Assembly (NCBI GenBank): GCA_016213425.1 | Contig: JACRAI010000023.1 | Location: forward strand, 1-30,582 | Length of the DNA: 30,582 bases | Reading direction: 5' to 3' | Source: an archaeon | GTDB lineage: Archaea; Nanobdellota; Nanobdellia; Woesearchaeales; ARS49 | In this document: positions 964-8,588 of the stretch, in pieces | Layout: every line of letters begins with the position of its first letter | How positions within the stretch are numbered: position 1 is the first letter of the stretch | Program-made: the position numbers and the translations under genes | The notes under the pieces: generated by a model | Databases searched by the model: none | Seen by the model: only the letters and a program-made list of their open reading frames with translations | What the model was told of the DNA's origin: nothing

Positions 964-1635
964 TTAACTTATACTTAAGTTAAACAAAGCTTTTTCTATA
1001 TTTCTACGCGCCTGACCCTCGTATTTATTTTTAAAATATTCTGTGTTATAGATGAAAGGCTTGTTGAGAAATGATTGAAGTACTCCTGCGCGTGCAGATT
1101 TGTACAGGTCTTCTGGAACCCAATAATACTCTTGACGAATTCCTCCATCGTAAAGCCAGAAAATTTGTTCAGGTTTTCCCAAAATTGATAAATCTGTATC
1201 CGCAATTAATTTTTGTTCAAGAGTTATAGGTGCTCTGTCATGCTTCGTAACCATAACTTCATCATGTGATTCTTGAGCGAACTCGTCAGATAATTCGAGT
1301 TCTTTAGCCATTTGATAAGAATACAACGCGCTTTTTTCTTCATTATCTTTAACAAGAACAGGATTGCCATTTTTATCTAAATGACCGGTATAATATATTA
1401 AATCATGATTCCCCCAACTAAACTTAACACGCAAAATTTTAGGAGGCTCCATTACTTCTTTAAATTCTGCAATTTTTAATTTTTTTATTTCATTAAACTC
1501 ATCCCATCCTTGAACTATGTGTTGCAAGTTATGGTATGCTCTAGCAGAGTCTACATATTGCTTTATCATGAACTTCCAGTAAGGAGTTGGATCTTTATCA
1601 GACAACTTCTTCATCAATTCAAAGAATTCTTTCAT
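964..1635 (-). CDS. Predicted HD-superfamily metal-dependent phosphohydrolase (COG4339-like)
   Basis: Motifs RAYHNLQH, NHD-IY, DNEEKSA, TKH, DTDLSILG, IRQEY-WVP and YE-QARRNI match this family. It has a GAGGGTGA RBS and overlaps the upstream gene by 4 bp. Confidence 0.8.
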   Translation of the reverse strand: MKEFFELMKKLSDKDPTPYWKFMIKQYVDSARAYHNLQHIVQGWDEFNEIKKLKIAEFKEVMEPPKILRVKFSWGNHDLIYYTGHLDKNGNPVLVKDNEEKSALYSYQMAKELELSDEFAQESHDEVMVTKHDRAPITLEQKLIADTDLSILGKPEQIFWLYDGGIRQEYYWVPEDLYKSARAGVLQSFLNKPFIYNTEYFKNKYEGQARRNIEKALFNLSIS

Positions 1636-2756
1636 TTCACCCTCAAATAACCTATCACGTCATCAACTACAAGTTCTATATTATTTAAATTATCCGAATT
1701 ATTTAATTCGAAAAGCATTCCATTGTTATCTTCTTTTATTTTTTGATACAACTTTTGTTTTTTCTCTTCATCAGTGTACTGGCGATCAAGCACTTGCTTT
1801 ATTCTTTCATCACTCCATCCTCTTTCTTTAAGTCTTCTTTGTCTGCTTTGTTCATCAGCGCTGACTAATACTATGTTATGATTTAATAGGTGAGTCCAGT
1901 TTTTTTCTATCATTATTGCTCCTTCAACAAGGATCAATCCTTTTTTTCCGTAAATTTCTTTTTTGAAACCTCTAATGATTGGTTCTCTCATTAATTCATC
2001 TAATTGGGTCCATTTTTGTTCATCATTGAAAACTATATCTCCTAATTCCTTTCTATTAATGAATCCATCAGTGGATTTTACCTGATCCCCAAATAATTGA
2101 ACTATTTGTTCTCTTATTTTAACGTATAATGGTTCTGTCCATTCACCTAATATTTTGTGGCCTATTTTATCTAAATCTACTGAGTGAACTTCCAAGTTTT
2201 TTTGTTTGCTTAATTCTTCAAATCTTTTTGAAATATAAGATTTTCCTGAACCAGCTCCACCTGCAAGTCCTATTAAGTATTGTCCTGATATTTTTTCTTC
2301 TAATTTTTGTTTTACAGTTAATGGAACATATTTTGTTAAATCTCCATATTCCTTCTGTATTGCTTTTGCTGCGCTTGAACTTACATGTCTTTGTTCTGGT
2401 TTCGCAATTAAAAGGAATGTTTCGATTGATCTTTGACTGTGGCCTATTTCGTGAAGTGCTGTTTCATAATCAAAATCCTTATTATCTCTGACACCTTTAA
2501 CAATTACGTCAACATTATTTTCGTAAGCATAATCAACTAGTAAACCTTCAAAAGAAACTACTTTAACATTTGGGACGTGTGCTAATACTTTTTTCGCTAA
2601 ATCTGTTCTTTCATCTAAATCAAGCAAGTATTTCTTCTCTGGATTGACTCCTATACCAACAATCATTTCATCAAACAATTTAGCAGCTCTTTCTATTAAA
2701 TCAATATGGCCATAAGTTATTGGGTCTGCCGAGAATGCACACATTGATCTAGTCAT
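1632..2756 (-). CDS. coaD: Bifunctional phosphopantetheine adenylyltransferase / dephospho-CoA kinase (CoaD-CoaE fusion)
   Basis: N-terminal FSADPITYGHIDLIERA, KGVR--KDFDYE and HVSSSAAK are bacterial PPAT motifs. C-terminal IGLAGGAGSGKS (P-loop), DLDKIGH, INRKELGDIVFND and QRRLKERG match DPCK. Confidence 0.9.
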   Translation of the reverse strand: MTRSMCAFSADPITYGHIDLIERAAKLFDEMIVGIGVNPEKKYLLDLDERTDLAKKVLAHVPNVKVVSFEGLLVDYAYENNVDVIVKGVRDNKDFDYETALHEIGHSQRSIETFLLIAKPEQRHVSSSAAKAIQKEYGDLTKYVPLTVKQKLEEKISGQYLIGLAGGAGSGKSYISKRFEELSKQKNLEVHSVDLDKIGHKILGEWTEPLYVKIREQIVQLFGDQVKSTDGFINRKELGDIVFNDEQKWTQLDELMREPIIRGFKKEIYGKKGLILVEGAIMIEKNWTHLLNHNIVLVSADEQSRQRRLKERGWSDERIKQVLDRQYTDEEKKQKLYQKIKEDNNGMLFELNNSDNLNNIELVVDDVIGYLRVK

Positions 2757-3219
2757 TTTTTACCTCTTCAGAATTGTTCAAGTAAACTCCTAGTGCTAGA
2801 GAAAATTCTCCTTTTTCAGGAAAATGCGCGGTTCTTCCTATCATGTGAGTATATTTTGTTAATTCTTCTCTTAGTTTTAAACTTGATGAAACAAGAGATC
2901 CAACGTAGACTATATTTTGTGATGTTTTTGGAAATTTATCAATCATTTCCCTAATTAATACCTCCCTAGTCACAGTTATTGCTATTGTGCTTAGCAGTGT
3001 TGCGTAAAGATCTTCTTTTTTGGAGTCAACTTTTGCTTTTCCAAAGTTTGCTATTACCAACTCTCCTTGAAGTGTTCCTTCTTTTTCTGGAAGCTTGTCT
3101 TTAATTAATAATTCAAATATTTCTTCTAAAGTTTGGTCAGCAGTTGAAGCAAAGTTTAATTTATCTGTTTTCCATACTATTTTTGTAAGCGTGCTGCCAA
3201 AATCAATTCCTGCGATCAT
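2749..3219 (-). CDS. coaW: Type II (Staphylococcus CoaW-like) pantothenate kinase homologue with a large in-frame internal deletion; probable pseudoenzyme
   Basis: GIDFGSTLTKIV, GEL-IANFG, NIVYVGS and GEFSLALG match type II PanK N- and C-terminal motifs, but the protein is about 156 aa versus about 270 aa. The likely start is ATG 3219 behind an AGGTGA RBS (the track uses GTG 3228). Confidence 0.75.
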   Translation of the reverse strand: MIAGIDFGSTLTKIVWKTDKLNFASTADQTLEEIFELLIKDKLPEKEGTLQGELVIANFGKAKVDSKKEDLYATLLSTIAITVTREVLIREMIDKFPKTSQNIVYVGSLVSSSLKLREELTKYTHMIGRTAHFPEKGEFSLALGVYLNNSEEVKND

Positions 3220-4350: not shown

Positions 4351-4704
4351 TCAACCTTTGTGTATCTTAATTTCATCTTCGGATACTATTGTTACACTGT
4401 TTTCTAATTTGCCTTTTATTTTTGACTTGAGAAGTTTAATCAGAGTCACACTTACCATTTTTGGTAATTGCAGTCTAAAACGCAGAAGAATGATTCCTTT
4501 ATGCTTAACTTTTTGATTCAAAACATTCGCAAAATCTTTGTCATGAGTGATAATTATTCTTTTTTCTTTATTTGCTAATTCTAGAACTTCTTTGTCACTC
4601 GCACCATGAAAGTTTTCTGCTTTTATATCTTTAACATCAAAACCCTCTTCAAGAAGAGATTTATACACCGAAGTGGCTATGTTTTCGTCAGTTAAGAACT
4701 TCAT
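4351..4704 (-). CDS. DUF5615 PIN-like (VapC45-type) toxin
   Basis: MKFLTDENI, D-EVL--A-KEKRIIITHDKDF. The likely start is ATG 4704 (the track uses TTG 4710). Confidence 0.85.
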   Translation of the reverse strand: MKFLTDENIATSVYKSLLEEGFDVKDIKAENFHGASDKEVLELANKEKRIIITHDKDFANVLNQKVKHKGIILLRFRLQLPKMVSVTLIKLLKSKIKGKLENSVTIVSEDEIKIHKG

Positions 4705-4706
4705 TT

Positions 4707-4937
4707 TCAAGCTATTTTAGCAGTTGGATAAACTTCTTCATGCTGCAAAGCACCAGTAGCATATTTTAGTGATGCAAGCACATCTTCTCTGGATAAATGA
4801 GGGTACTCCTGAATTAATTCATCAATACTCATACCTGAAGAAAGTAATTCCAAAATAAACTCTACAGACATTCTTGTCCCTTTAATAACTGGTTTTCCCG
4901 CCAAAATCTCAGGGTCAATAACTATTCTTCCATTCAT
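4707..4937 (-). CDS. DUF433 antitoxin (VapB45-type)
   Basis: RIVIDPEILAGKPVIKGTRMSVEFILELL--GMSIDELIQEYPHLSREDV is the canonical DUF433 pattern. It lies directly upstream of the DUF5615 gene. Confidence 0.9.
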   Translation of the reverse strand: MNGRIVIDPEILAGKPVIKGTRMSVEFILELLSSGMSIDELIQEYPHLSREDVLASLKYATGALQHEEVYPTAKIA

Positions 4938-4996
4938 GTATCATAATAAAACAAATCAATATTTAAATTTAACTGCGTTGCTAGATATTTTTTCTA

Positions 4997-5719
4997 TTAC
5001 TCTGTGCGTCTCCGACGCACCCTAACCAAACGGGCGTTGCAGTCGCCAAGACTGTAGCTGCCATGCGCAGACGACCTACTGCTGCAGTAGACGTTGACGA
5101 ACCCGCCGAGGCACCAAGCCCCCAGAGAAGGTTTCCTTAGAGGTTCAACAAGATAAACTGCCATTCCTTCACTTATCTTATAATTATCTCTTAAGTATTT
5201 GAAAACTTTTTCAACATACGCACCTAACAAATTTTGATCTCTTCCAGCAAGTTCAAACCAAACAGGATTATTCTTAGCTTCATTCTCTGTTAACAGTATT
5301 CCCGTGTGTTCCTTTCTAACATTTTTACTAAAAATCACCCCTTCAAAACTATCATAAACACTTTCTTCCAAAAGCAAAACACCATCAACCAACTTAGTTC
5401 TAGAATTTATATTTCTTAAAAGCTCACAATCATGAACAACCTTAAAACTACCATCAGGATGACAAGCCAACCCAGTACCAGAATCAAGATAATCATTAAT
5501 TAACAAAAAATCATTAAAACACAAACGCATAAGCAACAAATCACTAAAATCAGCAGGAAAACCCTCACCCAACAACACAGGCATCACACTAACAAAACTT
5601 TCCCCCTCAAAAATCTTATAACCAGAATAATCAACACCATCAAAAAGTAATTCTTTCTCTCTAACAAAACCCTGCTTTCCAACACCACCCAAATAATCAT
5701 CCAAAACCATAATACCCAC
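4997..5719 (-). CDS. Putative DGR target protein (archaeal CLec-fold, AvpA-like) with a C-terminal variable region
   Basis: The C-terminus LGAWCLGG...RSSAHGSYSLGDCNARLVRV has the W..G...S.A.G...L....RLV layout recalled for DPANN DGR variable proteins. It also has an NNC-codon-rich, GC-rich 3' end and a downstream GGA-triloop hairpin. The start may be GTG 5719 or ATG 5710. Confidence 0.75.
   Translation of the reverse strand: MGIMVLDDYLGGVGKQGFVREKELLFDGVDYSGYKIFEGESFVSVMPVLLGEGFPADFSDLLLMRLCFNDFLLINDYLDSGTGLACHPDGSFKVVHDCELLRNINSRTKLVDGVLLLEESVYDSFEGVIFSKNVRKEHTGILLTENEAKNNPVWFELAGRDQNLLGAYVEKVFKYLRDNYKISEGMAVYLVEPLRKPSLGAWCLGGFVNVYCSSRSSAHGSYSLGDCNARLVRVRRRRTE
5004..5020 (-). promoter_or_regulatory. 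DGR-type cis-acting DNA hairpin, 7-bp stem with a GGA (GRA) triloop
   Basis: The minus strand reads GTGCGTC-GGA-GACGCAC, a perfect inverted repeat with a C-G closing pair, immediately 3' of the VR. Confidence 0.7.
5019..5116 (-). mobile_element. Putative DGR variable region (VR) with an IMH-like 3' end
   Basis: 18 of the 27 codons from 5113 to 5033 end in C and none ends in A. No codon among the first ~60 of the gene ends in C. The region ends ...GCCCGTTTGGTTAGGGT. Confidence 0.7.
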
Positions 5720-5789: not shown

Positions 5790-7061
5790 TCACGAATGAG
5801 TTTCATGCACTATATTTTCAGAAATTTCTCCTCTTAAATTTTGTCCAAACAATTCTTTTACTTGTTTAGGATGATTGCTTAATAGCCATGCTAGTTTTAT
5901 AAATGCTGTTTCTGGAGTCATATCACAATAATTTCCCAACACTCCAATTTCTAAAAGTCTTCTTCCTGGAGTGTAAACGTTCATGTCAACTATCCCATAA
6001 ATTGTTTGAGTGGTCATGACTACTGGCATGTTTTTGCTTAATTTTTTTATTACTTCAAAAATTTTCTCGTGCTCTTTTGTTAATTTATCAATTTCATTAA
6101 TTGGTGCATGACCTAACCCTGTTCCTTCTATCACTAACCCGTCAAATTTCTCAAAAGCTTTGAATTCTTCAACAAACATATTAGTGTGTACTTTTAGCAG
6201 ACCAACTTTTAGTTTTTCATCAAAAAGTTGCAGTGAAAATTTACCTTCTGTCTTCGATGGTCCTTTTAGCAGAGTTATTTGTTTCGAATCATAATTTATT
6301 TTCGCTATGGGTGTTGTATTTATTGCTTGAAATGCGTCTCTTCTTGACGAATGCATTTTTCTGCATTTTGTTCCTGGAAGAATAACACAATGGTTGTCAT
6401 CGCTGTGTTCATGCATGCATAATGCAACCCCAGTATATTTTGTGTTGGCAATAAATGTCACTGCAGAAATCAAGTTTGATGCTGCATCGCTGCTTCCTCT
6501 ATCACTGCTTCTTTGAGCACCAACCAACAAAACAGGGATAGGACAATTTTCTAGAGCGAAACTTAATGCTGCACCAGTGTAATGCATTGTATCTGTTCCA
6601 TGAGTTATTATTACCCCTTTAACGCCTTTTTTTATTTCTTCATCTACTGCTTTAGCCATTATGTTATAATGAGAAAAGCGCATGTCATCTGATGACATGT
6701 TGCTTAGTAGTCTTGATGAAATGTTTGCCATATTTTGCAGTTCAGGAAACATTCTGAGCATTTCTTCAGGAGTGAACTTGTTGTAAACAGCTCCAGTTTC
6801 ATAATCCACTTTGGAAGCAATTGTTCCACCAGTATGCAAGATAGAAATTGTTGGCAGGCCTTTCTTTTGTTCTGTTTTCAAAGGTTTTTCTTGAGGTTCT
6901 TTTCTTGCTTCTAAAACTTTTATTTTTGCTTGTTTTTTGTTAATGCTTATATTGTAGCCAGTGTCGAGTTTTAGAACTAAGAAATTTTCTTCTTCAGGCA
7001 TTAAAACTCCTTCAAAAGTTCCTAAATTCGATTCTACTTTTACTCTGTCGCCCGGTTTCAT
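5790..7061 (-). CDS. gatD: Glutamyl-tRNA(Gln) amidotransferase subunit D
   Basis: N-terminal GDRVKV...G-LMP...LKLDTGYNI domain, TGGTIASKVDYETGAV, HGTDTM, GAQRSSDRGSSD, RKMHSSRRDAF and DMTPETAFIKLAWLL. Confidence 0.95.
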   Translation of the reverse strand: MKPGDRVKVESNLGTFEGVLMPEEENFLVLKLDTGYNISINKKQAKIKVLEARKEPQEKPLKTEQKKGLPTISILHTGGTIASKVDYETGAVYNKFTPEEMLRMFPELQNMANISSRLLSNMSSDDMRFSHYNIMAKAVDEEIKKGVKGVIITHGTDTMHYTGAALSFALENCPIPVLLVGAQRSSDRGSSDAASNLISAVTFIANTKYTGVALCMHEHSDDNHCVILPGTKCRKMHSSRRDAFQAINTTPIAKINYDSKQITLLKGPSKTEGKFSLQLFDEKLKVGLLKVHTNMFVEEFKAFEKFDGLVIEGTGLGHAPINEIDKLTKEHEKIFEVIKKLSKNMPVVMTTQTIYGIVDMNVYTPGRRLLEIGVLGNYCDMTPETAFIKLAWLLSNHPKQVKELFGQNLRGEISENIVHETHS

Positions 7062-7065
7062 TTAA

Positions 7066-7623
7066 TCAAAAATCAACTTTAGGAGCTGTTTGAGCTCCTG
7101 CATCTGCTTTGAAAGATTCTTTAACATTAAAACCAAACAAGGATGCTACAATATTTGTAGGTAGTCTTCTTACCTTTACATTGTAAAGTTGCACCGCACC
7201 GTTATAATCTTGTCTTGCAACTGCAACTCTATTTTCCGTACCTTCTAATTGAGCTTGCAAGTTCAAGAAGTTCTCACTTGCTTTTAATTGAGGATAATTT
7301 TCAGCAACTAACAGTAATCTTCCTATTGCTCCATCAAGTTCTTGCGCAGTGTTTACTGAAGGGTTTGAAGACCATTGACTTCTTAACTCTGTAATTTTAG
7401 TGAATAAATCTGCTTCATGAGTTGCATAACCTTTAACTGTTTCAACTATATTAGGTATTAAATCAAATCTTCTTTGGTATTGTGCTTGAACATTGCCCCA
7501 TGCTTTGTTCACATTTTCATCCGTGCTAACTAAACTGTTGTAGCTTCCGGCAAACCATATTAGTAACAATAAAACTAATACTCCTAAACCAATCAATACT
7601 TTTTGTGTTGTGTTTAATGTCAT
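7066..7623 (-). CDS. lemA: LemA family protein
   Basis: N-terminal TM helix, YNSLV..DE.V..AW.NV..QYQRRFDLIPN, LLLVAENYPQLKA and QLEGTENRVAVAR.DYN. It has an AGGTGA RBS. Confidence 0.95.
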   Translation of the reverse strand: MTLNTTQKVLIGLGVLVLLLLIWFAGSYNSLVSTDENVNKAWGNVQAQYQRRFDLIPNIVETVKGYATHEADLFTKITELRSQWSSNPSVNTAQELDGAIGRLLLVAENYPQLKASENFLNLQAQLEGTENRVAVARQDYNGAVQLYNVKVRRLPTNIVASLFGFNVKESFKADAGAQTAPKVDF

Positions 7624-7691: not shown

Positions 7692-7733
7692 AGCACGTAC
7701 CACGAACTGCAAACCATGAACCACAAACTACTC
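7692..7733 (+). repeat. Degenerate heptamer tandem tract 2, with an inverted arm at 7679-7689
   Basis: AGCACGT ACCACGA ACTGCAA ACCATGA ACCACAA ACTACTC at the 3' end of the TPM gene. GTTTGGAGTTC (7679-7689) pairs with GAACTGCAAAC (7704-7714) at 10 of 11 positions. Confidence 0.65.
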
Positions 7734-8588
7734 AAGGAATCTTCCTCCGCTACCACCGCCACTGAAACCACCGCCACCACCGAAACTGAAACCACCGCTA
7801 CCGCCAGAACTACCATATCCTCCTAAACCACCACTACCCATACCATATTTGCCAGATCCGTAATACCCATTTGTTCTTAACAAAAAAAATAGCGAGAAGA
7901 AAAGCATAACAAAAAGAGCAGATATGAAAATATCTATAGCTATAAACCAGGCAATAATCATTACAAATAACTCAGCTCCAAAAAATGTTGTGTACTTTTT
8001 TGCTTTTTTCTTTATCTTAGTACAGTATTGTGCAAACTTCATAAAAAAGATTGCGGCTCCAAAAAGAAAAAGCGGTGTAAAATCTCGGAAATTATTAGAT
8101 TTATATTCTTCAAGAACTGAAGGATCGTTTTTTAGTAATTTTTGGATTTTTATCAATGCAAGGTAAATTCCTTCACCATAATCTTCTGCTTTGAAATGAG
8201 GAACCATTACTTTTCTTCCTAAATTTGAGGATACAACATCGGGAATTGATCCCTCTAAACCTGAACCAACCTCTATACGCCACTCTCTTTCCTCTAAAGC
8301 AACAAGAATCACTAAACCATTTTTTTGCTTGCCAACACCCCATTCACGACCTATATTTAATGCAACTTCTTCAACGGGACGTCCTTCAAGTGAAGGCAAA
8401 GTTACTACTGCAATTTCTACAGTTAATTCTTTTTCGATTTGAGAAATCAAATCATTAATCTTTATTTTATCTTGATTTGTAAGTACCCCTGCAAAATCAT
8501 TAACCCATCCTTGAGGTTTAGGTATTTCTAGAGCTAGCGCTGGAGTGATGAACAATAAAAGCGATAAAAACACCAGAGCTTTTTTCAT
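7728..8588 (-). CDS. TPM-domain (YgcG/TLP18.3-like) membrane protein with a Gly-rich tail
   Basis: WVNDFAGVL, EIAVVTLPSLEG, WGVG--KNGLVILVA--EREWRIEVG-GLEG-IPD, TM helices and a GGGGFSGGGSGG tail. It forms the typical pairing with lemA. Confidence 0.9.
   Translation of the reverse strand: MKKALVFLSLLLFITPALALEIPKPQGWVNDFAGVLTNQDKIKINDLISQIEKELTVEIAVVTLPSLEGRPVEEVALNIGREWGVGKQKNGLVILVALEEREWRIEVGSGLEGSIPDVVSSNLGRKVMVPHFKAEDYGEGIYLALIKIQKLLKNDPSVLEEYKSNNFRDFTPLFLFGAAIFFMKFAQYCTKIKKKAKKYTTFFGAELFVMIIAWFIAIDIFISALFVMLFFSLFFLLRTNGYYGSGKYGMGSGGLGGYGSSGGSGGFSFGGGGGFSGGGSGGRFLE

Follow-up and report, generated by a model that had tools for sequence, protein, structure and literature searches.

Does the unusual 3′ end of an otherwise anonymous archaeal gene mark the variable region (VR) of a diversity-generating retroelement (DGR), in which a template repeat (TR) is copied by a reverse transcriptase (RT) and written into a target gene? 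The gene lies on contig JACRAI010000023.1 (GenBank assembly GCA_016213425.1; Nanobdellota, Woesearchaeales), and the whole 30,582-nucleotide (nt) stretch that was analyzed is called the window here. A first-pass annotation made from the letters of the DNA had proposed a DGR-type hypervariable region at this 3′ end. The proposal gained support from the predicted fold of the protein, the adenine bias of its differences from related TRs, the cassettes of its relatives, and a sequence resembling the initiation of mutagenic homing (IMH) site followed by a hairpin. Positions 5025 to 5128 are most probably the VR of a DGR target gene encoding a single-domain protein with an AvpA-like C-type lectin (CLec) fold. 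The features on which this reading is built are as follows.

4997..5710, minus strand: target gene, 237 amino acids (aa) from the ATG at 5710; probable AvpA-like CLec-fold DGR variable protein
5025..5128, minus strand: variable region (TR-homologous), residues about 198-232, SLGAWCLGGFVNVYCSSRSSAHGSYSLGDCNARLV
5040..5107, minus strand: adenine-mutagenised core, codons 205-227, located by mapping the TR adenines of the relative L039 (below) onto the window
5021..5036, minus strand: VR 3′ end, invariant, GC-rich and IMH-like, GCCCGTTTGGTTAGGG; encodes the predicted beta5 strand ARLVR(V)
5004..5020, minus strand: GC-rich hairpin GTGCGTC-GGA-GACGCAC, with a 7-bp stem and a GGA triloop, within the last codons (VRRRRT)

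The open reading frame (ORF) extends upstream to a GTG at 5719 (4997-5719, 240 codons) and closes with a stop codon at 4997-4999. The ATG at 5710 is the likely start, matching a 237-aa database entry that is identical to the ORF translation from residue 4 on.

Codon composition was the original reason for suspecting a VR. The last codons quoted by the annotation were found in place on the minus strand, and a recount gave the same break in codon usage. Among the 27 codons from 5113 to 5033, the third base was C in 18, T in 5, G in 4, and A in none, and the first 60 codons of the gene ended in T (38), G (16), or A (6) but never in C. Given the third-position base composition of long ORFs across the genome (A 0.435, T 0.341, C 0.116, and G 0.108), the probability of 18 or more C-ending codons among 27 was 2.4e-11, that of no A-ending codon among 27 was 2e-7, and that of no C-ending codon among 60 was 6e-4. 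The stretch from 5031 had the highest GC content (0.63) of any 90-nt stretch in the 30.6-kb window (mean, 0.32; standard deviation [sd], 0.058; z = 5.3), in agreement with the abrupt GC island in AT-rich surroundings that the annotation had described.

In two relatives, target, TR, and RT occur together. A scan of JGI metagenomes for the window VR scaffold, adenine sites excluded, identified contig Ga0210057_1013154 (L039), the closest natural relative found, which carries a target ORF with its VR, a TR, and an RT. The target ORF is 46% identical to the window protein (E value, 1e-52), the TR lies in intergenic space at about 1234-1338, and the 566-aa RT starts 52 nt past the TR, matches RVT_1 (2.2e-25), and contains LGNLTSQ and YVDD motifs. 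The LGxxxSQ motif marks DGR RTs. At its C terminus the L039 RT (1390-3090) also has an HTH_40 domain, and its tail is long and rich in Lys and Asn. Because no Avd-like ORF was seen between the L039 target and RT, the accessory function of this cassette may be fused to the RT. The L039 VR (753-839) lacks 12 nt (4 codons, AAC AAC TAC AAC-like) of its TR (1234-1338), an in-frame indel inside the AAC run; the window VR is full length.

A second complete arrangement was found in a genome of the same order (G058), where four tandem paralogous targets each end in a 93-nt VR. After them come a noncoding TR, whose variable sites are all A, and an RT. Across 60 relatives, the family profile matched 6, from 6 genera, and all 6 encode RVT_1, which is present in 8 of the 54 relatives lacking the family (Fisher p = 6e-5, with the relatives not being independent samples). 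Three paralogs of the window protein were found on a third relative (L024; GCA_053533315.1, JAIYNH010000004.1), where no RT was seen within 16.8 kb. Positions 940-16777 of L024 hold about 20 co-oriented, tightly packed genes of several families; at least 15 genes of this array start with the same N-terminal module of about 30 residues (ILGDKKRVRYDEGLIDVVN...), and some others have GXGXG-like repeats.

Other searches returned less. An adenine-tolerant scan of the window VR against the RT loci of four related genomes (G001, G014, G024, and G058) gave no match, the TRs there being those of other lineages. In G001, which belongs to the same genus as the window, the RT has its own TR/VR pair of another lineage (L016, C26, 2402-2477 and 2753-2828), 91% identical with T/A-strand-specific differences. 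The G001 homolog of the window protein (L011, 1393-2022) ends in ...GRLWRIGTSYGATGYADLNEAEELLFK and does not have the GRLVGV end, and no TR matching its 3′ end was found in the surroundings of the G001 RT. The VR scaffold pattern matched 13 times in 185,579 species genomes, never in an archaeal record, and these matches were judged to be chance; the pattern was not found in IMG/VR, and the inferred TR pattern had no exact match in JGI metagenomes or IMG/VR.

If the block is a VR, its differences from a TR should fall at template adenines, and alignment with L039 revealed this pattern. From end to end, the window VR aligns colinearly with the L039 TR (alignment A3), and it is also colinear with the L039 and L024 VRs. 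Relative to the L039 TR, 16 of 28 A sites were changed, compared with 7 of 70 other sites (Fisher p = 2.7e-6). In the 5′ half, changes affected 9 of 15 A sites and 0 of 35 others. The VR of L039 differed from its own TR in the same way, with 13 of 21 A sites and 1 of 65 others changed (Fisher p = 2.9e-9). The 16 window bases unlike TR adenines are at 5107, 5104, 5097, 5092, 5091, 5086, 5085, 5082, 5079, 5071, 5058, 5050, 5046, 5044, 5041, and 5040, all at codon position 1 or 2 within codons 205-227. Variable sites are thus confined to the first two positions of AAY-type TR codons, so that stop codons cannot arise. About 16 of the approximately 35 codons are variable, with the scaffold W, L, S.A.G, L, and ARLV fixed. 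The seven non-A differences all lie in the 3′ half and are common to the VRs of the three L024 paralogs, which places the predicted cognate TR of the window VR in the L024 sublineage, not that of L039.

A candidate for such a TR was present in the same sample. The window was found in a 2020 groundwater metagenome run (X1), and the assembled contigs of this run were compared over positions 4850-5450. One 986-nt contig was identical to the window at a depth of 6.5. Another contig, of 309 nt and depth 2.5, matched exactly 5025-5128, with 17 differences in 104 nt. The differences listed were those at a distance of over about 31 nt from either end of the aligned piece, and all eight of those visible were T on the plus strand, or A on the coding strand (5058, 5079, 5082, 5085, 5086, 5091, 5092, and 5097), each at codon position 1 or 2. 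For example, GTC AAC GTC TAC TGC AGC AGT ... AGC in the window becomes GAC AAC AAC TAC AAC AAC AAT ... AAC in the 309-nt contig.

The L039 TR predicts 9 such sites in that interval, and the eight visible ones are all among them. The other bases of the interval are the same in contig and window, including TCT GCG CAT, which is not what the L039 TR has. A further seven A sites are predicted from the L039 TR in the unlisted end zones, giving 15 expected differences versus the 17 observed. No window A was replaced by another base in the visible part, which favors a TR over a second VR, and homology ends at 5025, just short of the point where VR and TR diverge in the relatives. From this pattern we infer that the 309-nt contig would be the cognate TR, or that of a very close strain, and too short to have been binned. 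A search meant to recover this contig through the first 42 residues of the L039 RT returned no candidates. The A-biased, TR-like copy that the first-pass annotation had proposed to look for with blastn is therefore missing from the assembly but present among the contigs of the sample. The template it had sketched was borne out in the run of AAC/AAT codons and in GGC AAC, but erred where the TR-like copy keeps TCT, CAT, and TAC.

DGR target genes also carry signals that direct homing. The VR ends in IMH and the TR in IMH*, and a GC-rich inverted repeat lies just downstream of IMH (PMC5758913). In the window, the IMH-like end GCCCGTTTGGTTAGGG follows the last variable codon and is conserved in all related VRs, which have GGG where the L039 TR has GAA, a difference corresponding to IMH versus IMH*. 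The adjacent hairpin at 5004-5020 was present in both minimum free energy and centroid DNA folds. The L039 VR and two of the L024 paralogs (p2 and p3) have (T)GCGCC-GGA-GGCGC(A) at the same position, with an imperfect version in p1. In the window stem, a C:G pair of these relatives is replaced by T:A, a compensatory change, and a G.T wobble occurs in one L024 copy. The L039 TR lacks the hairpin; G058 VRs have a GTA-triloop hairpin that is also missing from the G058 TR. The window gene thus has the arrangement of a DGR target, an invariant GC-rich IMH distinct from IMH* and then a GC-rich inverted repeat.

What kind of protein would be diversified was not evident from family databases, as Pfam and NCBIfam searches of the window protein found no family. 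A word-indexed search with the whole protein returned only the self match, and relatives came from an exhaustive HMMER search of 1.84 billion cluster representatives, which found 410 proteins at E <= 1e-3 and 152 at E <= 1e-10. The family therefore comprises at least 410 cluster representatives as a lower bound, and most members are 200-290 aa long. A language-model atlas placed the window protein among hypothetical proteins of Nanobdellota. In a 50-member alignment (A1), a conserved body is followed by the C-terminal consensus MGVYL..P..R.W....L...S.A.G...L....GRLVGVAP, in which a few scaffold residues are near-invariant and the positions between them accept almost any residue.

An AlphaFold2 model built with alignment A1 as input had a predicted local distance difference test score (pLDDT) of 87.6 and a predicted template modeling (pTM) score of 0.85. 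Foldseek comparison with the PDB gave a single significant match, 5ioo_A (AvpA), with an E value of 5.9e-10 and a probability of 1.00; the alignment spanned 217 columns at 15% identity, with template modeling (TM) scores of 0.67/0.75, and the next match had an E value of 0.37. The comparison with AvpA suggested by the first-pass annotation thus agreed with the C-type lectin fold that it had named for such targets. A profile of 50 family members matched no chain among PDB sequences even at E <= 1, which limits the AvpA link to the fold level and makes the window protein family a separate sequence family. Among the AvpA motifs GxxVVVYAH, HPxxxPFxG, and RFxGV, only the third had a clear counterpart, RLV[G/R]V.

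Model strands at residues 198-204 and 229-234 (ARLVRV) lie on either side of the variable loop. The predicted structure, with a single-domain CLec fold, AvpA-type inserts, and the VR between beta4′ and beta5, has the attributes of the AvpA-like subclass and supports a variable binding surface formed by the C-terminal loop between these two strands. By analogy, the ligand would probably be a surface or host molecule.

The mechanism that best fits these data would begin with a TR RNA copied by a DGR-type RT that misreads adenines, after which the cDNA would replace the VR. The GC-rich, IMH-like end (5021-5036), which does not vary, and the hairpin next to it (5004-5020) would direct homing, and about 16 codons that are AAC/AAT-like in the TR could take many values as the scaffold stayed fixed. 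No TR or RT was found within 5 kb of the gene on one side or 25 kb on the other side in the window. Because both would have to lie beyond these distances, diversification of the window target would act in trans.

Several observations weigh against an intact, active system in this genome, and most of them would be expected if the block were a relic, that is, a former DGR target whose genome has lost TR and RT and retains a frozen VR allele, with the TR-like contig coming from a related co-occurring archaeon. A repeat search, blastn, and an adenine-tolerant ungapped scan of both strands, which together covered the window and the 56%-complete assembly (139 contigs, 1.07 Mb), returned A-rich background only and no TR. 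No RT was found in the same assembly using RVT_1 or the L039 RT protein. The seven non-A differences mean that the L039 TR is not cognate to the window VR. The 309-nt contig has a depth of 2.5 versus 6.5 for the window's own contig and could derive from a relative present in the same sample; no more than 8 of its 17 differences can be seen; and a single VR allele was seen among the assembled contigs, which drop rare variants. A relic would also have precedents, since AvpA homologues without DGR association were listed by Handa et al. 2016 (PMC5006420), and the G001 homolog has neither the GRLVGV end nor a TR match near its RT.

However, the IMH-like end and hairpin of the window gene are intact, the latter with a compensatory change in its stem, and in its middle part, which is fully visible, the TR-like contig matches the window VR at all non-A bases, down to TCT GCG CAT. 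The assembly is only 56% complete, and the closest homologs are often solo genes without a nearby RT, so distance from an RT is normal for this subfamily. On balance we regard a relic as unlikely. That the block has no link to DGRs at all, being instead a segment acquired by recent transfer, or a conserved motif of the protein or DNA, with no more than a resemblance to a VR, is strongly disfavored and very improbable. Such an origin would account for the lack of a cognate TR or RT assembled with the gene and for the lack of a Pfam or NCBIfam match, but not for homologous VRs in complete cassettes, differences to TRs that are adenine-specific, a TR-like copy in the same sample, an AvpA-like fold in the predicted model, or a hairpin kept in VRs and absent from TRs. 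A VR in a DGR target gene is the better description of this locus. The element may be active today, and the TR-like contig may belong to this genome.

The closest structural precedent is AvpA (PDB 5IOO), the DGR variable protein of a Nanoarchaeota-related archaeon. The entire AvpA chain folds as a single C-type lectin domain; its variable residues begin where beta4′ ends, its invariant beta5 strand (RFxGV) is encoded by the IMH, and its coding region includes the hairpin (Handa et al. 2016, PMC5006420). The window protein is similar in its predicted one-domain CLec fold, a VR that runs from the end of beta4′, an IMH encoding beta5 (here RLVRV), and a hairpin inside the coding region. Both come from small-genome subsurface archaea, and AvpA-like homologues and the window are both from groundwater. 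Unlike AvpA, which has 12 variable codons in a VR of 27, the window VR has about 16 in about 35; only 8 residues follow beta5 in the window protein, compared with 46 in AvpA; and the window target is not adjacent to a TR and RT. L039 shares the VR scaffold, the GGG of the IMH, and the GGA-triloop hairpin with the window, and its TR is identical to the window at non-A bases in the 5′ half. The L039 target, TR, and RT lie within 3 kb, however, and no TR or RT is near the window target.

Comparison with bacterial and phage systems gave a similar mixture. Like the reference system, the Bordetella phage BPP-1 DGR (Mtd, TR, Avd, and bRT; PMC5758913), the window has a VR at the 3′ end of a gene for a CLec-fold ligand-binding protein, adenine-specific TR-VR differences, a GC-rich IMH distinct from IMH*, and a GC-rich inverted repeat past the IMH. 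Unlike BPP-1, it is archaeal and chromosomal, standing among housekeeping genes rather than in a phage tail-fibre gene; its predicted CLec subclass is AvpA-like, not FGE-like; and the related L039 cassette has no visible Avd gene and an RT with C-terminal HTH_40. DGRs with nonadjacent or remote targets are known, for example in Treponema denticola (Wu et al. 2018, PMC5758913). In DGRs of this type the target is likewise far from RT and TR, with related targets scattered in the genome; those systems are bacterial, whereas the window case is archaeal and its cassette is not in the assembly.

Gene neighborhood is relevant to how such a target would be diversified. The target gene stands alone between gatD (5790-7061), whose product has a GatD N-terminal domain, as fits an archaeon, and a DUF433/DUF5615 (PIN-like) pair (4351-4937) that is probably a toxin-antitoxin module. 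It is the only family member in the assembly. Its closest homologs likewise stand alone, surrounded by housekeeping or nucleotidyltransferase/HEPN genes, and their contigs carry no RT. The solo position of the target and of its closest homologs suggests that the AvpA-like subfamily to which the window protein belongs is usually diversified in trans.

Other features of the neighborhood were recorded. The DUF433 (76 aa) and DUF5615/PIN-like (119 aa) genes lie directly downstream of the target gene, and diverged copies of the DUF433 gene occur in other organisms of the same sample at much higher depth. The second-highest GC island of the window (7743-7832, GC 0.58) was considered as a second VR and ruled out, as it is the glycine-rich tail of another ORF. 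This island (7728-7832) is a GGSGG-type repeat tail of ORF 7728-8588, which adjoins a LemA-family gene (7066-7623).

A separate compositional anomaly was found at the opposite end of the target gene.

5390..5719, minus strand: extremely G+T-rich coding strand poor in A and C, the 5′ third of the target gene

Over 300 nt, G+T reached 0.75 in this region, more than in any other of the 20,609 stretches compared across the assembly (mean, 0.542; sd, 0.031). Third-position frequencies in the first 100 codons were A 0.07, C 0.00, T 0.68, and G 0.25; this A value ranked lowest among 6,443 100-codon stretches, followed by 0.19 as the next independent value. The closest homologs have a milder form of this bias (third-position A, 0.20-0.28), and more distant homologs do not have it. 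Judged by the positions at which five close homologs have the same base, 41 A were lost (A>T 21, A>G 17, and A>C 3) and 20 gained in codons 1-110; in codons 111-195, losses (24) and gains (25) were balanced. This substitution spectrum, with A>T and A>G far above A>C, resembles that of VRs in this lineage. The antisense A/C-rich strand was also considered as a TR for another VR and rejected, its best non-A match in the assembly (70%) being background.

One speculative explanation is that the 5′ bias was left by a mutational process that is directed at the adenines of one strand and acts outside the VR, synonymous sites included. A candidate process is gene conversion by the RT, repeated many times, in which the donor is cDNA of the target's own transcript with mutagenised adenines. 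We hold this to be very doubtful, but if it were true, DGR-type mutagenesis could erode a target gene beyond its VR. The composition of the 5′ third is the one feature of this locus that might open a new direction.

DGRs and AvpA-like targets in groundwater archaea are already established (PMC5006420; PMC5758913), and with groundwater DPANN-type archaeal DGRs and such targets described since 2015-2017, the locus extends this picture and does not change it. For annotation pipelines, it offers a well-delimited example of VR, IMH, and hairpin, in a solo target that would escape any pipeline requiring a nearby RT. Diversification in trans, if usual in this subfamily, matters for counting DGR targets in fragmented metagenome-assembled genomes. 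For the organisms themselves, the reading set out here would assign a mechanism and a predicted fold to at least 410 protein clusters in small-genome archaea, which form a family that Pfam does not cover.

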